A DNA stretch of 64,000 bases from assembly GCF_048403405.1 (NCBI RefSeq), contig NZ_CP183129.1. The stretch is one strand, 5' to 3'. This document shows positions 4,657 through 60,876 of this stretch, one piece after another (position 1 is the stretch's first letter; every line of letters begins with the position of its first letter). The stretch comes from Escherichia coli. GTDB taxonomy: Bacteria; Pseudomonadota; Gammaproteobacteria; Enterobacterales; Enterobacteriaceae. The position numbers were made by a program, and so were the translations under genes. The notes beneath the pieces are model-generated. The model saw only the letters and a list, made by a program, of their open reading frames with translations, was not told where the DNA came from and made no database searches.

Positions 4657-6012
4657 TTATTTCAAGTCGGGTAAGTCGTTGTATAAGCCCTGTTTAATTC
4701 CCGCTAATGGAATAAGGTTATTCACCGCAGCGGCATAATTTACGGCGGCGACCCAGCCATCATAATTGGCATTTATTTCAGCCGATTGCGCCTGAAAGAC
4801 ATCTTGCTCGACGGTTAATAGATCATTCAGACTGCGTTTGCCCAATTTATATTCATTTTGGTACACATCTCGCGTTTTGTGCGCACTTTCGGATTGTGCT
4901 AAACCGGCTTCTTCGCGACCCCGTGCGCCTGTCCAGTTGGCATATGCCACAGACGCTCGTTGCAGCACATCCAGTTTTGCCTGTTCGACCTGCGAGGCAG
5001 AGATTTTTTGTTGCCCTTCGGCCTGTTGCACCTGGGCAGAAACCGCGCCGCCCTGATACAGCGGCGCGTTAACGTTCAGTTGTAGCTGATCATCCCAATA
5101 CGAGCGGTCGCTGGTCTGGTAGCGCGTTTTGCCCCCCTGAATACTCAGCGTTGGCCAGTATTGCGCTTTCGTTTTTTCCACGCCGTACTGTGCTGACTGG
5201 CGTAAGTTTTCTGCCGCCAGCACCAGCGGGATGGACTGGTAATCAATATTTTTCAGCGATACCGGCTGCTCGGCTAATTCAGCAGGTGGCGCGGCTATCG
5301 CCTCCGGCTGTACGCCAGTGAGCACCGCCAGTTGCGCTTTGGCGCTTGCCATCTGCGCCTGATATTGCTCCAGCGTTGAGCGCATTCCGGCAATGCGCGT
5401 CTGGGCCTGTAATTCATCCGACGACGAGTTCAGGCCAGCGTTAGCACGCAATGCTGCCATGTTGTAGACGTTTTCCAGCGAGTGAATATTGCGTTGAGCC
5501 GCATAGCACAAAGCCTGATAACGACTGACTTCCATATAGGCAGTTGCCGTTTTCTCTGCAACATCGGTTAATGTTGCCATCAATTTAAAGCGGTAGCTGT
5601 CACGGGCGGCAGTTTGCAGTTTGATATCGTTGTTAGTTTTACCAAAGTCATACACCAGCTGTGTCAGGGTTATGCCATACGAAACGTTGTTATCAAGCCT
5701 GCCACTGGAGTCCGTTTGTCGGGACGGTCCCGCATTGCCGGTTAATCCAACGTGCGGATACCAGGCACTTTTGGCTTCATCAATTTGCGCTTCGCCAATA
5801 CCTATCTGCGCCGCCTGTTGAGTGACGTCGGGATTTCGCGCAAAGGCGCGTAATATACTTTCCTGTAAAGATAATTGGGCAACTGGCGTTACCGCTGGGG
5901 CATTCGCCCATTGTGGCAGCGGTGCAGCAATTGCAGCTTCTCCCATCACCATAAAACTTATTAAAAAAATAAACCCATTATTTTTACGGCTTTTAAACTG
6001 GAATCGCGCCAT
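4657..6012 (-). CDS. TolC-family outer-membrane efflux/secretion protein, 451 aa, with N-terminal signal peptide; likely the outer-membrane component for the adjacent adhesin
   Basis: Complete ORF; basic n-region then hydrophobic FIFLISFMVMG and AIA-A signal-peptidase-like site; TolC/OprM-like composition; 108 bp upstream of the adhesin start on the same strand. Confidence 0.75.
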   Translation of the reverse strand: MARFQFKSRKNNGFIFLISFMVMGEAAIAAPLPQWANAPAVTPVAQLSLQESILRAFARNPDVTQQAAQIGIGEAQIDEAKSAWYPHVGLTGNAGPSRQTDSSGRLDNNVSYGITLTQLVYDFGKTNNDIKLQTAARDSYRFKLMATLTDVAEKTATAYMEVSRYQALCYAAQRNIHSLENVYNMAALRANAGLNSSSDELQAQTRIAGMRSTLEQYQAQMASAKAQLAVLTGVQPEAIAAPPAELAEQPVSLKNIDYQSIPLVLAAENLRQSAQYGVEKTKAQYWPTLSIQGGKTRYQTSDRSYWDDQLQLNVNAPLYQGGAVSAQVQQAEGQQKISASQVEQAKLDVLQRASVAYANWTGARGREEAGLAQSESAHKTRDVYQNEYKLGKRSLNDLLTVEQDVFQAQSAEINANYDGWVAAVNYAAAVNNLIPLAGIKQGLYNDLPDLK

Positions 6013-8839: not shown

Positions 8840-9051
8840 ATGTCACAAACTATCGACCTGACCCTGGACGGCCTGTCCTGCGGTCACTGCGTTAAACGCG
8901 TGAAAGAAAGTCTCGAACAGCGCCCGGATGTTGAGCAGGCGGATGTGTCTGTCACTGAAGCGCACGTTACCGGGACTGCCAGTGCAGAACAGCTGATCGA
9001 AACCATCAAACAAGCGGGTTATGACGCATCTGTAAGCCACCCAAAGGCTAA
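8840..9051 (+). CDS. copA: CopA(Z) copper chaperone, 70 aa, produced by programmed -1 ribosomal frameshift within copA
   Basis: Slippery heptamer C-CCA-AAG at 9040-9046 (codons 68-69); the -1 frame reads CCC AAA GGC TAA, ending ...SHPKG. Confidence 0.75.
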
Positions 9052-11344
9052 ACCGCTGGCGGAGTCATCAATCCCGTCGGAAGCACTGACAGCGGTTTCT
9101 GAGGCGCTTCCGGCAGCGACCGCCGATGACGATGACAGCCAGCAGTTGCTGCTGAGCGGCATGAGCTGCGCCAGCTGTGTCACCCGCGTACAAAATGCGC
9201 TGCAAAGCGTACCGGGCGTCACTCAGGCACGGGTAAACCTGGCGGAGCGTACTGCGCTGGTGATGGGCAGTGCCTCCCCACAAGATTTAGTGCAGGCGGT
9301 GGAAAAAGCGGGCTACGGCGCGGAAGCGATTGAAGATGACGCTAAACGCCGCGAGCGCCAGCAAGAAACCGCCGTCGCTACGATGAAGCGCTTCCGCTGG
9401 CAGGCGATTGTCGCACTGGCGGTGGGTATCCCGGTGATGGTCTGGGGGATGATCGGCGATAACATGATGGTCACCGCCGACAACCGCAGCCTGTGGTTGG
9501 TTATCGGCCTGATAACCCTGGCGGTAATGGTTTTCGCCGGCGGGCATTTTTACCGCAGTGCATGGAAAAGCCTGCTGAACGGCGCGGCGACAATGGATAC
9601 GCTGGTGGCGCTGGGTACGGGCGTGGCGTGGCTCTATTCGATGAGCGTCAACCTGTGGCCGCAGTGGTTCCCGATGGAAGCGCGACATCTTTATTACGAA
9701 GCCAGCGCGATGATTATCGGTCTGATCAATCTCGGCCATATGCTGGAAGCGCGCGCGCGTCAGCGTTCTTCTAAGGCGCTGGAGAAATTACTCGATTTAA
9801 CCCCACCGACGGCGCGCCTGGTCACTGACGAAGGTGAAAAAAACGTGCCGCTGGCAGATGTTCAGCCAGGTATGTTACTGCGCCTGACGACCGGCGACCG
9901 TGTGCCGGTAGATGGTGAGATTACTCAAGGCGAAGCGTGGCTGGATGAAGCGATGCTGACGGGCGAACCTATCCCGCAGCAAAAAGGCGAAGGCGATAGC
10001 GTCCATGCCGGGACAGTGGTACAGGACGGCAGTGTGCTGTTTCGTGCCAGTGCGGTCGGCAGCCATACTACGCTGTCACGGATCATTCGCATGGTGCGAC
10101 AGGCCCAGAGCAGCAAGCCAGAAATCGGTCAACTGGCGGATAAAATCTCCGCCGTGTTTGTGCCGGTAGTGGTAGTCATTGCGCTGATCAGTGCGGCAAT
10201 CTGGTATTTCTTTGGTCCGGCACCGCAGATTGTCTATACCCTGGTGATTGCCACCACGGTGCTGATTATCGCCTGTCCGTGTGCGCTAGGACTGGCGACG
10301 CCGATGTCGATTATTTCGGGCGTCGGGCGGGCGGCTGAGTTTGGTGTGCTGGTGCGGGACGCCGACGCGCTGCAACGCGCCAGTACGCTCGACACCGTGG
10401 TGTTCGATAAAACCGGGACGCTGACCGAAGGGAAGCCGCAGGTTGTCGCAGTAAAAACATTTGCTGATGTTGATGAAGCGCAAGCATTGCGTCTGGCGGC
10501 GGCGCTGGAGCAAGGTTCCAGCCACCCGCTGGCACGGGCGATCCTCGATAAAGCAGGTGATATGCAGCTACCGCAGGTCAACGGTTTCCGCACATTGCGC
10601 GGGCTGGGTGTGAGCGGTGAAGCAGAAGGTCATGCGTTGTTGCTGGGTAATCAGGCGTTGTTAAATGAGCAACAGGTTGATACCAAAGCTATCGAAGCGG
10701 AGATTACTGCTCAGGCATCGCAAGGGGCAACGCCTGTGCTGCTGGCGGTTGACGGGAAAGCGGTAGCCCTGCTGGCTGTACGCGATCCGTTGCGTAGTGA
10801 TAGCGTGGCGGCGCTGCAACGCCTGCATAAAGCGGGATATCGTCTGGTGATGCTAACCGGGGATAACCCAACCACCGCCAATGCGATCGCCAAAGAAGCA
10901 GGGATTGATGAGGTGATAGCCGGGGTGCTACCGGACGGTAAAGCCGAAGCGATCAAACGTCTGCAAAGTGAAGGACGTCAGGTGGCAATGGTGGGCGACG
11001 GCATTAACGACGCGCCAGCGCTGGCTCAGGCGGATGTCGGTATTGCGATGGGTGGCGGCAGTGATGTTGCCATTGAAACCGCGGCGATTACCCTGATGCG
11101 CCATAGCCTGATGGGTGTTGCAGATGCGCTCGCGATTTCCCGCGCAACGCTGCGCAATATGAAGCAGAACCTGCTCGGCGCGTTTATCTACAACAGTATC
11201 GGTATTCCGGTCGCCGCCGGTATTTTGTGGCCGTTCACTGGAACACTGCTTAACCCGGTGGTTGCCGGAGCGGCAATGGCGCTCTCGTCGATTACCGTAG
11301 TGAGTAACGCTAACCGGTTGCTGCGGTTTAAACCGAAAGAGTGA
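8840..11344 (+). CDS. copA: Cu(I)-exporting P1B-type ATPase CopA (834 aa)
   Basis: Complete ORF; two N-terminal metal-binding motifs (GLSCGHC, GMSCASC), CPC and DKTGT motifs. Confidence 0.95.
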
Positions 11345-11435
11345 TTGGTATTTACTTAATGCGTTTGTGAGATCCAGTTCTTGTTGCGCTCCTTTTATGA
11401 GTCATGCCATATAAAGTGACTGGCGCAGGGAGCGC

Positions 11436-11467
11436 GCAGGGGGCGGCCAATCGCCGCCGCCCCCTGC
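11436..11467. repeat. Perfect 12-bp GC-rich hairpin (GCAGGGGGCGGC / GCCGCCCCCTGC, 8-nt loop) within a GC-rich non-coding segment
   Basis: Read directly; no U-tract on either side, so not a canonical terminator. Confidence 0.6.
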
Positions 11468-11772
11468 ACCCCCGGGCTCTGGCGAACAAAATCGCCGCTG
11501 CGCGGTACCCTCAGCTTATCCCTTGCGGCTACCGGGTCGGGCGCGAGGTAACATCCCTGTAAAACGCGCCCTCAGCCCACATCCATGTGGGCTGCCCCGG
11601 CCTTCAGGGAACGCCTCGGCGATTTTGACGCCACCAACACCGGTGCAGTCTTTCGTTTCAAAGCAAAAACAATTTTTCGATCATATTTAAGCTACCACTG
11701 AACAAGCCTCATAACTCCATTTGCGCCATCCCTCCCCGCGCGCTAGCATGATATTTCACAAAGGGAGGTCGT

Positions 11773-12567
11773 ATGGATCTGTTGTACCGGGTAAAAACGC
11801 TTTGGGCCGCGCTGCGCGGTAATCATTACACCTGGCCTGCTATCGATATCTCTCTTCCCGGCAATCGCCATTTTCATCTGATTGGCAGTATTCATATGGG
11901 CAGCCACGATATGGCTCCCCTGCCCACCCGTTTGCTCAAAAAGCTCAAAAACGCCGATGCGCTGATCGTCGAGGCGGATGTTTCCACCAGCGATACGCCT
12001 TTTGCTAATTTGCCTGCCTGCGAGGCGCTGGAAGAGCGCATTAGCGAGGAGCAACTCCAAAACCTGCAGCACATTAGCCAGGAGATGGGCATTTCTACCT
12101 CACTCTTTTCTACCCAACCGCTGTGGCAAATCGCGATGGTTCTTCAGGCGACGCAGGCACAAAAACTGGGGCTGCGGGCAGAATACGGTATCGATTACCA
12201 GCTATTGCAGGCGGCGAAGCAACAACATAAACCCGTGATTGAACTGGAAGGGGCTGAAAACCAGATTGCCATGTTGCTCCAGCTCCCTGACAACGGACTG
12301 GCGCTGCTGGACGATACGCTGACCCACTGGCACACCAATGCACGGTTGCTGCAACAAATGATGAGCTGGTGGCTGAATGCGCCGCCGCAAAATAATGAAA
12401 TAACGCTGCCTAATACGTTCAGTCAGTCGCTGTATGATGTGCTGATGCATCAGCGAAATCTCGCCTGGCGGGACAAATTATGCGCCATGCCGCCGGGGCG
12501 CTATGTGGTCGCAGTCGGTGCACTACACCTGTATGGAGAAGGGAATTTGCCGCAGATGTTGCGCTAA
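11773..12567 (+). CDS. ybaP: TraB-family protein YbaP (264 aa)
   Basis: Complete ORF with AGGGAGG RBS; sequence recognisable. Confidence 0.9.
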   Translation: MDLLYRVKTLWAALRGNHYTWPAIDISLPGNRHFHLIGSIHMGSHDMAPLPTRLLKKLKNADALIVEADVSTSDTPFANLPACEALEERISEEQLQNLQHISQEMGISTSLFSTQPLWQIAMVLQATQAQKLGLRAEYGIDYQLLQAAKQQHKPVIELEGAENQIAMLLQLPDNGLALLDDTLTHWHTNARLLQQMMSWWLNAPPQNNEITLPNTFSQSLYDVLMHQRNLAWRDKLCAMPPGRYVVAVGALHLYGEGNLPQMLR

Positions 12568-12649
12568 AAAAATGGCCAATATCGCTATTGGCCCGTCAAA
12601 GAGGAATTTCATATTTTTATTATTATGCCGTCACTTTAAGCGACGGTGT
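12566..12649 (-). ncRNA. chiX: ChiX (SroB/MicM) small regulatory RNA, 84 nt
   Basis: Reverse complement reads ACACCGUCGCUUAAAGUGACGGCAUAAUAAUAAAAAUAUGAAAUUCCUCUUUGACGGGCCAAUAGCGAUAUUGGCCAUUUUUUU with the CCUCUUUGACGGG seed and terminator hairpin; lies between ybaP and ybaK. Confidence 0.85.
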
Positions 12650-12769
12650 AACTCGATTGTCGCTCAATCTCACCATCCTGCCAATACTCTTAGGCAAGAT
12701 GACTCTTTTTTTGGACCGCCATCAGGCGTATGCTTGCTTCGTTTTTTTGTTTAAGGCAGGAAAATTACC

Positions 12770-13249
12770 ATGACACCCGCAGTTAAATTACTCGAAAAAA
12801 ACAAGATTTCGTTTCAAATCCATACCTACGAGCACGATCCGGCTGAAACCAATTTTGGCGATGAAGTCGTCAAAAAATTAGGTTTGAATCCGGATCAGGT
12901 CTACAAAACGCTGCTGGTCGCAGTGAACGGTGATATGAAACACCTTGCCGTGGCCGTTACGCCGGTCGCAGGTCAACTGGATCTTAAAAAAGTAGCAAAA
13001 GCGCTGGGTGCCAAGAAAGTTGAGATGGCCGATCCGATGGTTGCGCAGCGTTCGACGGGATATCTGGTTGGGGGGATTAGCCCTCTGGGGCAGAAAAAAC
13101 GTCTGCCAACGATTATCGACGCCCCCGCACAAGAATTTGCCACTATTTATGTTTCCGGTGGCAAGCGCGGACTGGATATCGAACTGACGGCAGGCGATCT
13201 GGCGAAGATCCTCGATGCCAAATTTGCTGATATCGCCCGCCGCGATTAA
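12770..13249 (+). CDS. ybaK: Cys-tRNA(Pro)/Cys-tRNA(Cys) deacylase YbaK (159 aa)
   Basis: Complete ORF; sequence recognisable. Confidence 0.92.
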
Positions 13250-13254
13250 GCATT

Positions 13255-13278
13255 GTGCCGGATGCGAACATCCGGCAC
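13255..13278. terminator. Hairpin between convergent ybaK and ushA (REP-like, bidirectional terminator)
   Basis: GTGCCGGATG-cgaa-CATCCGGCAC, with TTT on the plus side. Confidence 0.6.
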
Positions 13279-13285
13279 TTTCGGA

Positions 13286-14938
13286 TTACTGCCAGCTCAC
13301 CTCACCTTTCGGTTCATAAACACTCACATCCAGCGGCGAGCTTTTCTGGATATACGCTTTCAGCACTTCGGCATCAATAAAGCCGGTATTCACATAGCCC
13401 GGTTTGTTATCAAGGCGCGGATATCCATCACCGCCGGTGGCATTGAAGTTTAATGTCGCCATGCGGTAAGTTTTCGCCGGATCGACCGGTTCGCCGTTGA
13501 TTTTCAGGTCGTTGAGTTTGCCGTCTTTCGCCACAAAGCTAACGTTGGCAAATTGCGGGTAGGCACCTGAATCTGGCTTCATTTGTGCGACGGCGGTCAG
13601 GTAATCAATCACCTCTTTACCGGTCATGTCGGCATACACCACCACATTGCCGAATGGCTGCACTTTCAGCACGTTTTTATAGCTGATATCGCCTGCTTCG
13701 ATAGAATCACGAATTCCGCCTCCACTCATCACCGCAAAGTCAGCACCAGTGCGATCCATTTGGGCTGCCAGAATTAACCGCCCCATATTGGTCTGTACAA
13801 AACGCACTTTGTCACGATCGCCTTCCAGACGACCATTGGTTTCGCCTATTTTCACGTCCAGCTGCGCTTTGCCTTTGTTCTGGAACGGCGATAACAGCGA
13901 GATCATTTGCTGGTTTTCAGCGATTTCAGGGGTGTACAGCACGCGCTCGCTTTTCCCGTCTTCCCAGGTCACTTTCTTCTTCAGGTTCACCGGAATCAGC
14001 TGGTAGTTAACCATTTTCATTTCGCCATTACGAAACTCAAAATCAGCCCGTCCCACGTATTTGCCCCACTCATGCGCCTGCACAATCCAGATGCCGTTTT
14101 GTTGATCTGGTTTGCATGGCGTACCCGGCACGTAATCGACCTGTTTTTTGTTTTCTGCCGCCATGCAGACCGGATCTTGCGAGTGACCACCGACGATCAT
14201 CGCCAGCGATCTGGCAGGCAGCGCGCGTGCCATCTCCACATCGCCCGGTGCATTAGAGCCGTGCTCACCATTGTCGTAATGCCCCATATGGGTCGCCGCG
14301 ATAATAATGTCTGGCTTTTCTGTCTGTTGCAGCTCCTGAATCACCAGCTTCGCTTCATCGGCGGGCTTACGGAACTCAATATCGGTGAAGTTTTCTGGGT
14401 TGCCTAACTTCGCTGTGTCATCCGTCGTCAGGCCAATAACGGCAATTTTCAGATCCTGACGCTTAAACAGCGCCCATGGTTTAAACAGGCGCTCGCCGGT
14501 ACTTTTCTGGTAGATATTGGCAGAAAGTAACGGGAACTTTGCCCACTTTTCCTGCTGACGTAATACGGTGAGCGGGTTATCAAATTCATGATTACCGATT
14601 GCCATCGCATCGTAACCCACCAGATTCATGCCGCGAAAATCAGGTTCGGCATCCTGTAAGTCAGACTCGGGCACGCCAGTGTTAATGTCGCCACCGGAAA
14701 GTAGCAACACGCTACCGCCTTCAGCCGCAACCTCTTTGCGGATACCATCCACCAGCGTTTTTTGCGCCGCCAGACCATATTCGCCATATTCATTGCGCCA
14801 AAAATGCCCATGATGATCATTGGTATGCAGAACTGTAATTTTGTAGGTTTTATCCTGCTCATACGCCAGAGCAGTTTCACTCGCCAGTGTAAATGTGGTT
14901 AACAGTGCTAACGCCACGCCCCGCTGCAATAATTTCAT
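13286..14938 (-). CDS. ushA: Periplasmic 5'-nucleotidase / UDP-sugar hydrolase (550 aa)
   Basis: Complete ORF; signal peptide and metallophosphatase motifs (e.g. GNHEFD). Confidence 0.95.
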   Translation of the reverse strand: MKLLQRGVALALLTTFTLASETALAYEQDKTYKITVLHTNDHHGHFWRNEYGEYGLAAQKTLVDGIRKEVAAEGGSVLLLSGGDINTGVPESDLQDAEPDFRGMNLVGYDAMAIGNHEFDNPLTVLRQQEKWAKFPLLSANIYQKSTGERLFKPWALFKRQDLKIAVIGLTTDDTAKLGNPENFTDIEFRKPADEAKLVIQELQQTEKPDIIIAATHMGHYDNGEHGSNAPGDVEMARALPARSLAMIVGGHSQDPVCMAAENKKQVDYVPGTPCKPDQQNGIWIVQAHEWGKYVGRADFEFRNGEMKMVNYQLIPVNLKKKVTWEDGKSERVLYTPEIAENQQMISLLSPFQNKGKAQLDVKIGETNGRLEGDRDKVRFVQTNMGRLILAAQMDRTGADFAVMSGGGIRDSIEAGDISYKNVLKVQPFGNVVVYADMTGKEVIDYLTAVAQMKPDSGAYPQFANVSFVAKDGKLNDLKINGEPVDPAKTYRMATLNFNATGGDGYPRLDNKPGYVNTGFIDAEVLKAYIQKSSPLDVSVYEPKGEVSWQ

Positions 14939-18324: not shown

Positions 18325-18408
18325 GTAGGCATGATAAGACGCGCCAGCGTCGCATCAGGCATCGAGAGCCAAATGCCAGATGCGGCGTGAACGCCTTATC
18401 TGGCCTAC
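18325..18408. repeat. Two REP units in opposite orientation (BIME) between ybaL and gsk
   Basis: GTAGGCATGATAAGACGCGCCAGCGTCGCATCAGGC and GCCAGATGCGGCGTGAACGCCTTATCTGGCCTAC match the enterobacterial REP pattern. Confidence 0.8.
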
Positions 18409-25724: not shown

Positions 25725-27656
25725 TCAAATGGGGCGGATACTTTCTTCATCCAGCTCCGCATCGAAGAATCGACGCAGGGTCTGAATATTATTATCCGCA
25801 ATAATGGACTCGCGCGCCTGCGCAAGTTTTTCTTCGTATATCGCCTGACGCCATTCCAGCGGCGTACGCACCGCGGGATTATCATCTTCAACGATAGTCA
25901 GTTCAACCGTTGAACCTTTTAACGTGCTCAACGCTTCAGCCAGTTTTTGCTGTGCGCCGCGGTTGTTCAAATGCCGCTGAGAGGAGCGCAAATGCAGACA
26001 TACTGCGTTGTCGCTCTCCTCTTTCCAGGCATTTAACGCCACCTGTTCGACCAGTTTTGGTAGCGAAAGTTGACTCACCTGTGCCGCCCACGGGTCGCGC
26101 TCAATGGCTTCTGCTGCCAGCTTCGCCGCCAGTTCCGGCGTTTTTTCATGTTCCAGCGCTTTTTTCAGCGCCTTCGGCGTGGCGACCACTTCTTTTTGCT
26201 GCATCACTGGAGTGGTCGCCTTCCAGCGATACGCTTCTTTTTTGGCTGGCGCTTTTTCCAGCGCCGATGGCACCGGACGCGCCTGAACGCGATCGGTGAC
26301 CGAAGCCAGTCTTTCCAGCGCAGCGTTATTCACCGGCCGCGCGCGGGTAGCGGCTGCCGGTTCACTCTTTTTTGCTTTGGTTGCTCCCTGCACGCGCTGC
26401 AACTGCTGGCGCGCCGCCAGCACCTGGCTGGTGGTTTCCGGGAGCGGTACAGTCGGTGCCTGCTGCGGCGCTGATTGCGGTTGCGGCGGCACCTGGGTTG
26501 GCGTCATTACTGCCGTTGGCGCGACGGGCGCAAAGGACTGGCGTGGCACTTCTGGCTCAGGTAGCGGCATACGCGGATGGAACGCCAGAGCGCGAAGCAG
26601 CGTCATCTCAACGCCCATACGGCGGTCTGGCGCATACGGTAATTCTTTGCGACCAATCAACAGCGTCTGATAGTAAAGCTGAATATCCGTCGGCGGTATG
26701 GTGCGCGCCAGTTCACGCATCCGCAGCTCGATAGCGGCCATGTCGTTGCCAAGTGCAGCAGGCGAAAGTTGTACCATCGCAATACGATGCAACAGGCCGA
26801 GCATTTCCACCAGCAACGCTTCCCACTCGATACCACGGGCAGCGGCTTCATTAATCAGCGCCATTACGCGCTCGCCGTTGGCCTCGACCATCGCTTCAAC
26901 CAGCGACAGCGCCTGATCGTCGTCAAGCGTACCCAGCATCGCACTGACCGCCTGAGTTGAAACCTGGCCGTCACCGCTGGCAATCGCCTGGTCGGTCAGA
27001 CTTAAGGCATCTCGCAGGCTGCCTTCAGCGGCGCGCGCCAGTAATTGCAACGCCCGCGGCTCGTGAGCGATATGTTCTTCGTTGAGGATGTGCTCAAGCT
27101 GATGGCGAATTTGCTCGACATCCAGCGCCTTGAGATGGAATTGCAGACAGCGCGACAAAATCGTCACCGGCAATTTCTGCGGATCGGTCGTCGCCAGCAG
27201 AAACTTAACGTGCTCCGGCGGCTCTTCAAGGGTTTTTAACAGTGCGTTAAAGCTGTGGCGCGACAGCATATGCACTTCGTCGATCAGATAAACTTTGAAA
27301 CGACCACGCGCCGGAGCGTACTGGACGTTATCCAGCAGGTCGCGAGTGTCTTCAACTTTAGTGCGCGAGGCGGCGTCGATTTCAATCAGATCGACAAAGC
27401 GCCCCTGCTCGATTTCACGACAGTTATCGCACACGCCGCACGGCGTCGCGGTAATGCCGGTTTCGCAGTTTAGCCCCTTCGCCAGCAGTCGGGCGATAGA
27501 GGTTTTTCCGACGCCACGGGTGCCGGAAAAAAGATAAGCATGATGAATACGCCCTAACGACAAGCCGTTCGCCAGTGCGGTCAGCACATGTTCCTGGCCG
27601 ACGACGTCAGCAAAGGTTTGTGGGCGCCATTTTCGGGCTAAGACCTGATAACTCAT
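25725..27656 (-). CDS. dnaX: DNA polymerase III tau subunit (643 aa, full-length product)
   Basis: Complete ORF; AAA+ clamp-loader motifs. Confidence 0.96.
   Translation of the reverse strand: MSYQVLARKWRPQTFADVVGQEHVLTALANGLSLGRIHHAYLFSGTRGVGKTSIARLLAKGLNCETGITATPCGVCDNCREIEQGRFVDLIEIDAASRTKVEDTRDLLDNVQYAPARGRFKVYLIDEVHMLSRHSFNALLKTLEEPPEHVKFLLATTDPQKLPVTILSRCLQFHLKALDVEQIRHQLEHILNEEHIAHEPRALQLLARAAEGSLRDALSLTDQAIASGDGQVSTQAVSAMLGTLDDDQALSLVEAMVEANGERVMALINEAAARGIEWEALLVEMLGLLHRIAMVQLSPAALGNDMAAIELRMRELARTIPPTDIQLYYQTLLIGRKELPYAPDRRMGVEMTLLRALAFHPRMPLPEPEVPRQSFAPVAPTAVMTPTQVPPQPQSAPQQAPTVPLPETTSQVLAARQQLQRVQGATKAKKSEPAAATRARPVNNAALERLASVTDRVQARPVPSALEKAPAKKEAYRWKATTPVMQQKEVVATPKALKKALEHEKTPELAAKLAAEAIERDPWAAQVSQLSLPKLVEQVALNAWKEESDNAVCLHLRSSQRHLNNRGAQQKLAEALSTLKGSTVELTIVEDDNPAVRTPLEWRQAIYEEKLAQARESIIADNNIQTLRRFFDAELDEESIRPI
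26362..27656 (-). CDS. dnaX: DNA polymerase III gamma subunit (431 aa) made by programmed -1 frameshift in dnaX
   Basis: Slippery A-AAA-AAG at codons 428-430 (plus 26367-26373); the -1 frame reads AAA AAA GAG UGA, adding one Glu then a stop at 26362-26364. Confidence 0.85.
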
Positions 27657-43016: not shown

Positions 43017-43130
43017 GGGTGGGGGCCCTGCCAGCTACATCCCGGCACACGCGTCATCTGCCTTGGCTGCTTCCTTCCGGACCTGACCTGGTAAACAGAG
43101 TAGCGTTGCGGGAGAACCAACAGAGCCCCC
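43017..43130 (-). ncRNA. ffs: 4.5S RNA (signal recognition particle RNA), 114 nt
   Basis: Reverse complement reads GGGGGCUCUGUUGGUUCUCCCGCAACGCUACUCUGUUUACCAGGUCAGGUCCGGAAGGAAGCAGCCAAGGCAGAUGACGCGUGUGCCGGGAUGUAGCUGGCAGGGCCCCCACCC. Confidence 0.95.
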
Positions 43131-60689: not shown

Positions 60690-60772
60690 AGAGCTCTCTC
60701 TTAGTTTAATTTCCGCCAGGTAATCAGATGACACGACTGTGCTTCACGCCATCTATTAACATGTACGTCAGT

Positions 60773-60799
60773 ATATGGGGATGTTTCCCCCACATTCAA
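60773..60799 (-). promoter_or_regulatory. sigma32 heat-shock promoter of lon
   Basis: Minus strand reads TTGAAT-N13-CCCCATAT, about 85 nt upstream of the lon ATG. Confidence 0.75.
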
Positions 60800-60876
60800 C
60801 GCCGAGAATAGAGGAAAAATTAAAGGGGAGATAAAATCCCCCCTTTTTGGTTAACTAATTGTATGGGAATGGTTAA

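Follow-up and report, generated by a model that had tools for sequence, protein, structure and literature searches.

We consider it highly probable that the minus strand at positions 12566–12649 of the window (the whole 64,000-nt stretch of Escherichia coli DNA analyzed here) carries the E. coli chiX gene in the canonical ybaK–chiX–ybaP context, that the overlap of its 3′ end with ybaP is a passive product of gene packing, and that the terminator at this place serves ChiX only. The gene encodes an 84-nt Hfq-dependent small RNA, ChiX, also called SroB, MicM, or RybC (Rfam RF00368, K-12 b4585). The locus is real, conserved, and already present in the reference annotation, and in this respect it is ordinary.

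Identity and modules of ChiX

To identify structured RNAs, we scanned the full 64 kb with Rfam 15 cmscan at gathering thresholds. Five matches reached the threshold, among them RF00368 (sroB) at 12566–12649 on the minus strand, which covered model positions 1–83 of 83 with 81.1 bits and E = 2.8e-10, the gathering score of this family being 44. Also above their gathering scores were the sRNA sraA (60761–60856, plus strand), the dnaX frameshift element (26328–26392, minus strand), the REP-derived element naRNA4 (18328–18405, minus strand), and the SRP RNA ffs (43026–43122, minus strand). The original prediction had placed an 84-nt ChiX sequence on the minus strand here and had named an Rfam ChiX match as its check; both Rfam and the K-12 annotation returned the same coordinates, the Rfam match being filed under the older family name. 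According to a table in PMC3384567, sroB is the original name, and RybC, MicM, and ChiX are later names of the same RNA. The synonymy also follows from the K-12 record, which describes the orthologous 84 nt as "small regulatory RNA ChiX" (b4585).

The sequence is identical to K-12 chiX at 83 of 84 nucleotides, and the flanks align without gaps. Orthology to b4585 is thus given by both the sequence and the ybaK–chiX–ybaP synteny. The two strains have the same gene, promoter, two hairpins, seed, U7 tail, flanking genes, and 2-nt overlap with ybaP. The sole difference within ChiX is nt 37 (window position 12613), where the window has U and K-12 has A, and which lies in the unpaired A-rich linker. 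Segment 11700–13300 is present at ≥95% identity in 5422 of 5426 complete E. coli genomes, and chiX is single-copy in the same number of genomes (5422/5426). The U37 allele is a minority allele, found in exact form in 382/5422 genomes (∼7%), and it matches other Escherichia species, occurring at the E. albertii and E. whittamii loci. Nucleotide 37 is the third position in the fourth of four consecutive A-R-N triplets of the linker. In Hfq distal-face binding the third position of such a triplet is free to vary, and we therefore expect the change to be neutral. Separately, U37 would add one base pair to a second block of complementarity with the K-12 chbBC spacer (UAUGAAAU : AUUUCAUA).

That the region could be a chance resemblance or a decayed remnant with no functional ChiX gene is a formal possibility, and apart from the one-base difference from the K-12 allele nothing speaks for it. 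We regard its likelihood as practically nil, given the match over the full model length at E = 2.8e-10, the recurrence of the same allele in 382 E. coli genomes and in E. albertii and E. whittamii, and the intact promoter, stems, seed, and tail, with the variant base falling in an unpaired linker.

The predicted fold of ChiX consists of two hairpins (nt 4–22 and nt 57–76), which leave nt 23–56 unpaired and are followed by AU7. At −23.9 kcal/mol (z = −3.8), this fold is more stable than that of any of 200 shuffled sequences. The 5′ stem-loop (nt 4–22; 12628–12646, minus strand) appears in both the minimum free energy (MFE) and the centroid structure. A stem-loop at this place is also seen in other genera despite diverged sequence; covariation in it could not be counted, as alignment with MAFFT across genera was not in register. 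The stem-loop is followed by the A-rich unpaired linker (nt 26–37; 12613–12624), with the A-R-N triplets AAU AAU AAA AAU, which, by analogy with class II sRNAs, we take to be a putative Hfq distal-face motif. The terminator hairpin (12574–12593, minus strand), identified by both the terminator scan and the fold, has an 8-bp stem GGCCAAUA/UAUUGGCC with a 4-nt loop. Two pairs of this stem show compensatory A-U to G-C changes, in 17/106 and 4/106 sequences, respectively. The U7 tail occupies 12566–12572. The GC-rich stem with the U7 tail is the intrinsic terminator characteristic of the ChiX family, and Hfq binding is predicted.

The seed (nt 45–58, UCCUCUUUGACGGG; 12592–12605, minus strand) was recognized by its complementarity to the chiP leader and to the chbB–chbC spacer. 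In particular, nt 45–56 (UCCUCUUUGACG) are a 12-nt perfect complement of CGUCAAAGAGGA, a block of the K-12 chiP leader whose end lies 7 nt upstream of the AUG, and nt 47–58 are a 12-nt perfect complement of CCCGUCAAAGAG in the K-12 chbB–chbC spacer. The seed is unpaired in the MFE fold, and it thus matches both the Shine–Dalgarno leader of chiP (ybfM) and the chbBC decoy, with both targets taken from K-12, as the window includes neither chiP nor chb of this strain. Shuffled targets occasionally reach 13–15 nt of complementarity through A/U homopolymer runs; the 12-nt runs are meaningful because they are located in the unpaired seed, and not by their length alone. We also tried RNAduplex with full-length ChiX against the chiP and chbBC RNAs, which yielded over-extended duplexes (for chiP, 8 of 500 shuffles were as good), and we used the count of contiguous complementarity instead.

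A promoter-like site is found at 12656–12684 (minus strand), with a −35 element TTGGCA, a 17-nt spacer, and a −10 element GACAAT that ends 7 nt before ChiX nt 1. It is the only sigma-70-like match in 11600–13400, and its bases are the same in K-12. Its position relative to the annotated ChiX 5′ end suggests that it is the chiX promoter. Transcription on the minus strand from this near-consensus sigma-70 promoter would end at the intrinsic terminator and yield an 84-nt RNA, in which a 5′ hairpin, an A-rich unpaired linker, an unpaired seed, and a hairpin with the U7 tail would follow each other. Between the −35 element and ybaK there is a T-run (12706–12712) with seven T in the window and eight in K-12, which on the chiX strand is an A-tract ∼22 nt upstream of the −35 element.

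As summarized in PMC7815308 (citing Figueroa-Bossi 2009, Overgaard 2009, and Bossi 2012), ChiX is made constitutively. The same source describes ChiX as an Hfq-binding RNA whose seed pairs with the Shine–Dalgarno region of the chiP mRNA, silencing the chitoporin; it names two antagonists that counteract or titrate ChiX, the chbBC spacer RNA and the chiP leader fragment ChiZ. The circuit has also been treated in Proteus (PMC4355480). As the seed and the structural modules are identical to those of K-12, we infer that ChiX of the window has the same function.

Overlap of the ChiX tail with the ybaP stop codon

The ybaP coding sequence (264 aa) spans 11773–12567 on the plus strand, in agreement between the list of open reading frames, Pfam, RefSeq, and the K-12 annotation. 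YbaP belongs to the TraB/PrgY/GumN family (PF01963, E = 1e-42; RefSeq name "ybaP: TraB/GumN family protein"); NCBIfam holds no model for it. The stop codon TAA is at 12565–12567, and an A7 run at 12566–12572 complements the U7 tail of ChiX, so that on the plus strand the sequence from 12559 reads TTGCGC TAA AAAAA TGGCCAATATCGCTATTGGCC CGTCAAAGAGGAATTT. The overlap is therefore exactly 2 nt (12566–12567), the AA of the stop codon being the complement of the last two U's. The codon that closes the ybaP frame thus consists of a T and of two A's with which the A-tract encoding the U-tail begins. The same 2-nt overlap is found in K-12 MG1655, with chiX at 507204–507287 (plus strand) and ybaP at 507286–508080 (minus strand).

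Published Term-seq data for K-12 place the dominant ChiX 3′ end at 507287 on the plus strand, that is, at window position 12566, the last U of the U7 tail (Adams et al., PMC7815308, supplementary file 1). The end is classed there as "primary: chiX; antisense: ybaP", with the last U evident from the 61-nt context given, and its scores in three listings are 445,279, 552,306, and 955,394, which puts ChiX among the most abundant 3′ ends in the data set. These data, as well as the bicyclomycin data described below, come from K-12 and not from the strain of the window. Since the ChiX 3′ end lies inside a stop codon that any complete ybaP mRNA contains, the two transcripts physically overlap by at least 2 nt, as is required of a cis-antisense pair. 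The overlap is real at the RNA level in K-12, and the true transcript overlap is probably longer than 2 nt, and much longer at that. The prediction of a terminator U-tract overlapping the ybaP stop codon is therefore borne out by the sequence, and that of convergent transcripts overlapping at their 3′ ends by the K-12 data. The further wording that ChiX shares its 3′ end with ybaP stands as far as overlapping ends are concerned, but does not extend to a shared terminator, as the U-tract is present in the ChiX direction only. The 2-nt overlap itself is already known, being contained in the K-12 reference annotation, and the ChiX 3′ end is contained in the published Term-seq data.

To see how far this arrangement is conserved, we scanned a collection of species-representative genomes with the pattern AAATTCCTCTTTGACNGGCC, which yielded 120 loci. 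The loci were oriented on ChiX, homologs of ybaP and ybaK were located by tblastn, and ybaP was extended to its stop codon. Two loci were left out, leaving ∼118: one match was at a contig edge, and the other, at 5396–5415 in a Candidatus Lindowbacteria MAG, matched all 19 specified bases of the pattern and was followed by neither a hairpin nor a T-run. The latter is most likely a chance match that shows the background rate of the pattern. The pattern fixes the seed and the first four bases of the terminator stem, whose invariance in the set is thus by construction, and the set is comprised of ChiX variants that carry these seed and top-of-stem bases.

The order ybaK–chiX–ybaP is kept in nearly all 118 loci. 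In 87 of the ∼118 loci (84 distinct sequences), the ybaP TAA shares two bases with the end of the ChiX T-run; loci of Escherichia, Salmonella, Citrobacter, Klebsiella, Enterobacter, Kluyvera, Serratia, Yersinia, and Rahnella are among them. The C-terminal tails of YbaP vary among loci in both length and sequence (GNLPQMLR, LPEMLKKG, PAMLQPQG, ELLRADNQ, and others), which means that the coincidence of the stop codon with the T-run is not an alignment artefact. Other arrangements also occur. Four Pantoea loci have a TGA stop codon and a 1-nt overlap. At four loci (gap −17; Kosakonia, one Phytobacter, and two Enterobacter-like genomes), the U-tract is followed by G and not A, and ybaP reads on past the A-tract to a TAA within the loop of the ChiX terminator; here the overlap is 20 nt, and the last six ybaP codons and the stop codon are encoded by the sRNA terminator. 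At a second Phytobacter locus (gap −87), the frame-walk ORF appears to stay open for 87 nt further, across all of chiX. A spacer of 3–230 nt separates the two genes in ∼22 loci, in Pantoea, Erwinia, Buttiauxella, Rouxiella, Hafnia, and a few others. Finally, Proteus has ChiX without an adjacent ybaP, as also stated in PMC4355480.

On the far side of ybaP lies copA (8840–11344, plus strand). The copA–ybaP spacer (11345–11772, 428 bp) is non-homologous to that of K-12, which contains three REP-like repeats and ybaQ. The spacer of the window is without ybaQ and carries at its positions 35–305 a ∼270-bp multi-copy repeat, with a median of 4 sites per genome. The repeat matches a "TRIP1e" site, 38 bp after copA and 124 bp before ybaP, described in PMC10888264. 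The full copA–repeat–ybaP configuration is present in 346 of 5426 E. coli genomes.

Where ybaP transcription ends

The hairpin at the junction of the two genes was scored by the consensus terminator scan on the minus strand only. The 8 nt that follow the stem read AUUUUUUU in the direction of ChiX and CGUCAAAG in that of ybaP, the latter with one U in eight; a U-tract is thus found on one strand, and a bidirectional terminator would have one on both. The tract CGUCAAAG complements the ChiX seed and does not vary among the 84 distinct sequences, the seed being fixed by the search pattern. The seed thus keeps the hairpin from becoming a two-way terminator. We therefore rejected a bidirectional terminator on sequence, and predict from the same features that the terminator works for ChiX and not for ybaP.

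One could still suppose that intrinsic termination at the hairpin is bidirectional and sets the end of the ybaP mRNA as well, in which case the overlap would be about the size of the hairpin, ∼30 nt. The symmetry of the hairpin allows it to form on either strand, an A-tract precedes it in the ybaP direction, no other conserved ybaP terminator is found, and shared terminators of convergent genes are common, as in chiQ/fur (PMC10687069). Yet the single U in the eight positions after the stem, the lack of a plus-strand terminator in the scan, and the seed-complement tract, which, invariant in 84 sequences, cannot evolve into a U-tract, together with the lack of a ybaP-strand 3′ end among the Term-seq entries of PMC7815308, make such a terminator very unlikely.

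In order to determine where else ybaP transcription may end, we scanned the ybaP–ybaK spacer (12568–12769, plus strand; 202 nt), whose opposite strand carries chiX together with the chiX promoter. No convincing ybaP-sense intrinsic terminator was found in 12568–12769, where the scan returned only a weak 5-bp hairpin with a T-run at 12723–12746. We rejected this site as a ybaP terminator in view of its 5-bp stem, its occurrence in Escherichia and a few Citrobacter only, and the number of such sites in the scanned region (three, with 2.1 expected by chance). In 107 loci, the ybaP-sense strand from the ybaP stop codon to the ybaK start had a terminator-like site in 21 cases, all of them weak and non-homologous, and none at the shared hairpin. 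The distance from the ybaP stop codon to the ybaK ATG is compact, with a median of 207 nt in the same 107 loci. As there is no conserved intrinsic terminator before ybaK, complete ybaP transcripts must carry antisense ChiX sequence. Transcription of ybaP would pass the hairpin and then either read antisense chiX toward ybaK or end by Rho or by head-on collision with the strong chiX transcription coming from the other side.

In the Term-seq tables of PMC7815308, the names "chiX", "ybaP", and "ybaK" occur only for the plus-strand ends 507287 and 506602, so that these tables hold no ybaP-strand 3′ end in or near chiX; low ybaP expression could account for this. The SMRT-Cappable-seq supplements (PMC6131387) contain no mention of ybaP, chiX, or ybaK.

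Read-through in the other direction has been recorded. A Rho termination region is reported at K-12 507468 (plus strand), antisense to ybaP, where a drop in coverage is seen both without bicyclomycin (1492 to 22) and in its presence (2100 to 115), with a Rho score of 3.7 and p = 4e-10 (PMC7815308, supplementary file 2). Thus a small fraction of chiX transcription passes the terminator and proceeds ∼180 nt into ybaP before it is stopped by Rho. Transferred by the gap-free alignment, this zone of low-level read-through past the ChiX terminator corresponds to 12385–12565 on the minus strand of the window, antisense to the 3′ part of ybaP.

Passive packing or regulation

Tail-to-tail packing with abutting or overlapping 3′ ends is commonplace, and the window contains another instance next to chiX. 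The gene ybaK (12770–13249, plus strand), encoding a Cys-tRNA(Pro)/Cys-tRNA(Cys) deacylase (NCBIfam NF007951, 328 bits), is co-directional with ybaP and divergent from chiX. It converges with ushA (13286–14938, minus strand) on a 36-bp spacer (13250–13285) with a single hairpin at 13255–13278, whose loop reads gcgaac in the window and gtttgc in K-12. The ushA 3′ end in K-12, at 506602, corresponds to window position 13250, one base from the ybaK stop codon (PMC7815308). Convergent pairs with shared terminators, such as chiQ/fur (PMC10687069) and ushA/ybaK, resemble chiX/ybaP in being arranged tail-to-tail with one hairpin between or inside the 3′ ends. They differ in that the ChiX hairpin has a U-tract on one side only, the other side being the sRNA seed, and is predicted to end ChiX but not ybaP. 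Another likeness is SraG, as presented in PMC5029454, an sRNA gene likewise opposite to both of its flanking genes, in the rpsO–pnp spacer. In both cases the sRNA is antisense in a short spacer between co-directional genes, which allows complementarity between it and transcripts of the upstream gene. A role of SraG in pnp regulation has been studied according to the same source, whereas for ChiX and ybaP or ybaK we found no functional link in the literature searched.

We infer that the overlap is a passive result of tight gene packing. The ybaP frame would simply run to the first in-frame stop codon, which the A-tract of the terminator supplies, and a spacer of zero length could grow but could not shrink. 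This reading is supported by three observations: ∼22 species tolerate a spacer of 3–230 nt; where G follows the U-tract, in Kosakonia and Phytobacter, the frame simply continues to the TAA in the terminator loop; and the neighboring convergent pair ushA/ybaK is equally tight. Still, an exact 2-nt overlap across families is also what functional constraint would give, and the data cannot separate the two.

The alternative is that the overlap is regulatory, and that ChiX and ybaP, and perhaps ybaK, affect each other through duplex formation with cleavage by RNase III, through sponging, or through head-on interference from the very active chiX promoter, with the ybaP 3′ region being an obligate antisense-ChiX. 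Several features would fit: the convergent arrangement is conserved in most Enterobacterales, no conserved ybaP terminator precedes ybaK at a compact and conserved spacing, the ChiX seed has a single perfect target in all 64 kb, located on the ybaP-sense strand directly behind the stop codon, the ChiX end is so abundant in Term-seq, and chiX read-through runs antisense into ybaP, where it is held back by Rho. However, such conservation is equally explained by separate constraint on each gene, about a fifth of the species tolerate inserted spacers, ChiX of Proteus does without ybaP altogether, and the undetected RNA ends on the ybaP strand suggest very low ybaP expression. Our analysis yielded no evidence for a regulatory overlap, and the literature searched contained no experimental report of one. 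We regard this alternative as unlikely.

Its narrower forms seem to us quite doubtful. One is that ybaP lacks a terminator of its own throughout Enterobacterales; all full-length ybaP transcripts would then include ChiX in perfect antisense, whole or in part, and might extend into ybaK, which would make the locus a conserved cis-antisense module. The other is that the obligate antisense relation between ybaP transcripts and ChiX has a regulatory consequence; this, too, is an improbable proposition. If either held, ChiX, abundant and constitutive, would limit the expression of ybaP and ybaK, either itself or through head-on transcription from the chiX promoter, and induced ybaP transcription could deplete ChiX, acting as a third, chromosomally linked sponge beside the chbBC spacer and ChiZ.

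The overlap has practical consequences. It leads to annotation collisions in transcriptomics, one case being a RIL-seq study in which "ybaP.EST3UTR was considered to be ChiX" (PMC10954441). In addition, knockouts of ybaP or chiX can easily damage the other gene. As it stands, the finding matters little, ChiX being among the best-studied enterobacterial small RNAs. Still, the stop codon in the U-tail in most Enterobacterales, the one-way terminator, and the lack of a conserved ybaP terminator together raise a modest and testable question, namely, whether the expression of ybaP and ybaK is coupled to ChiX.
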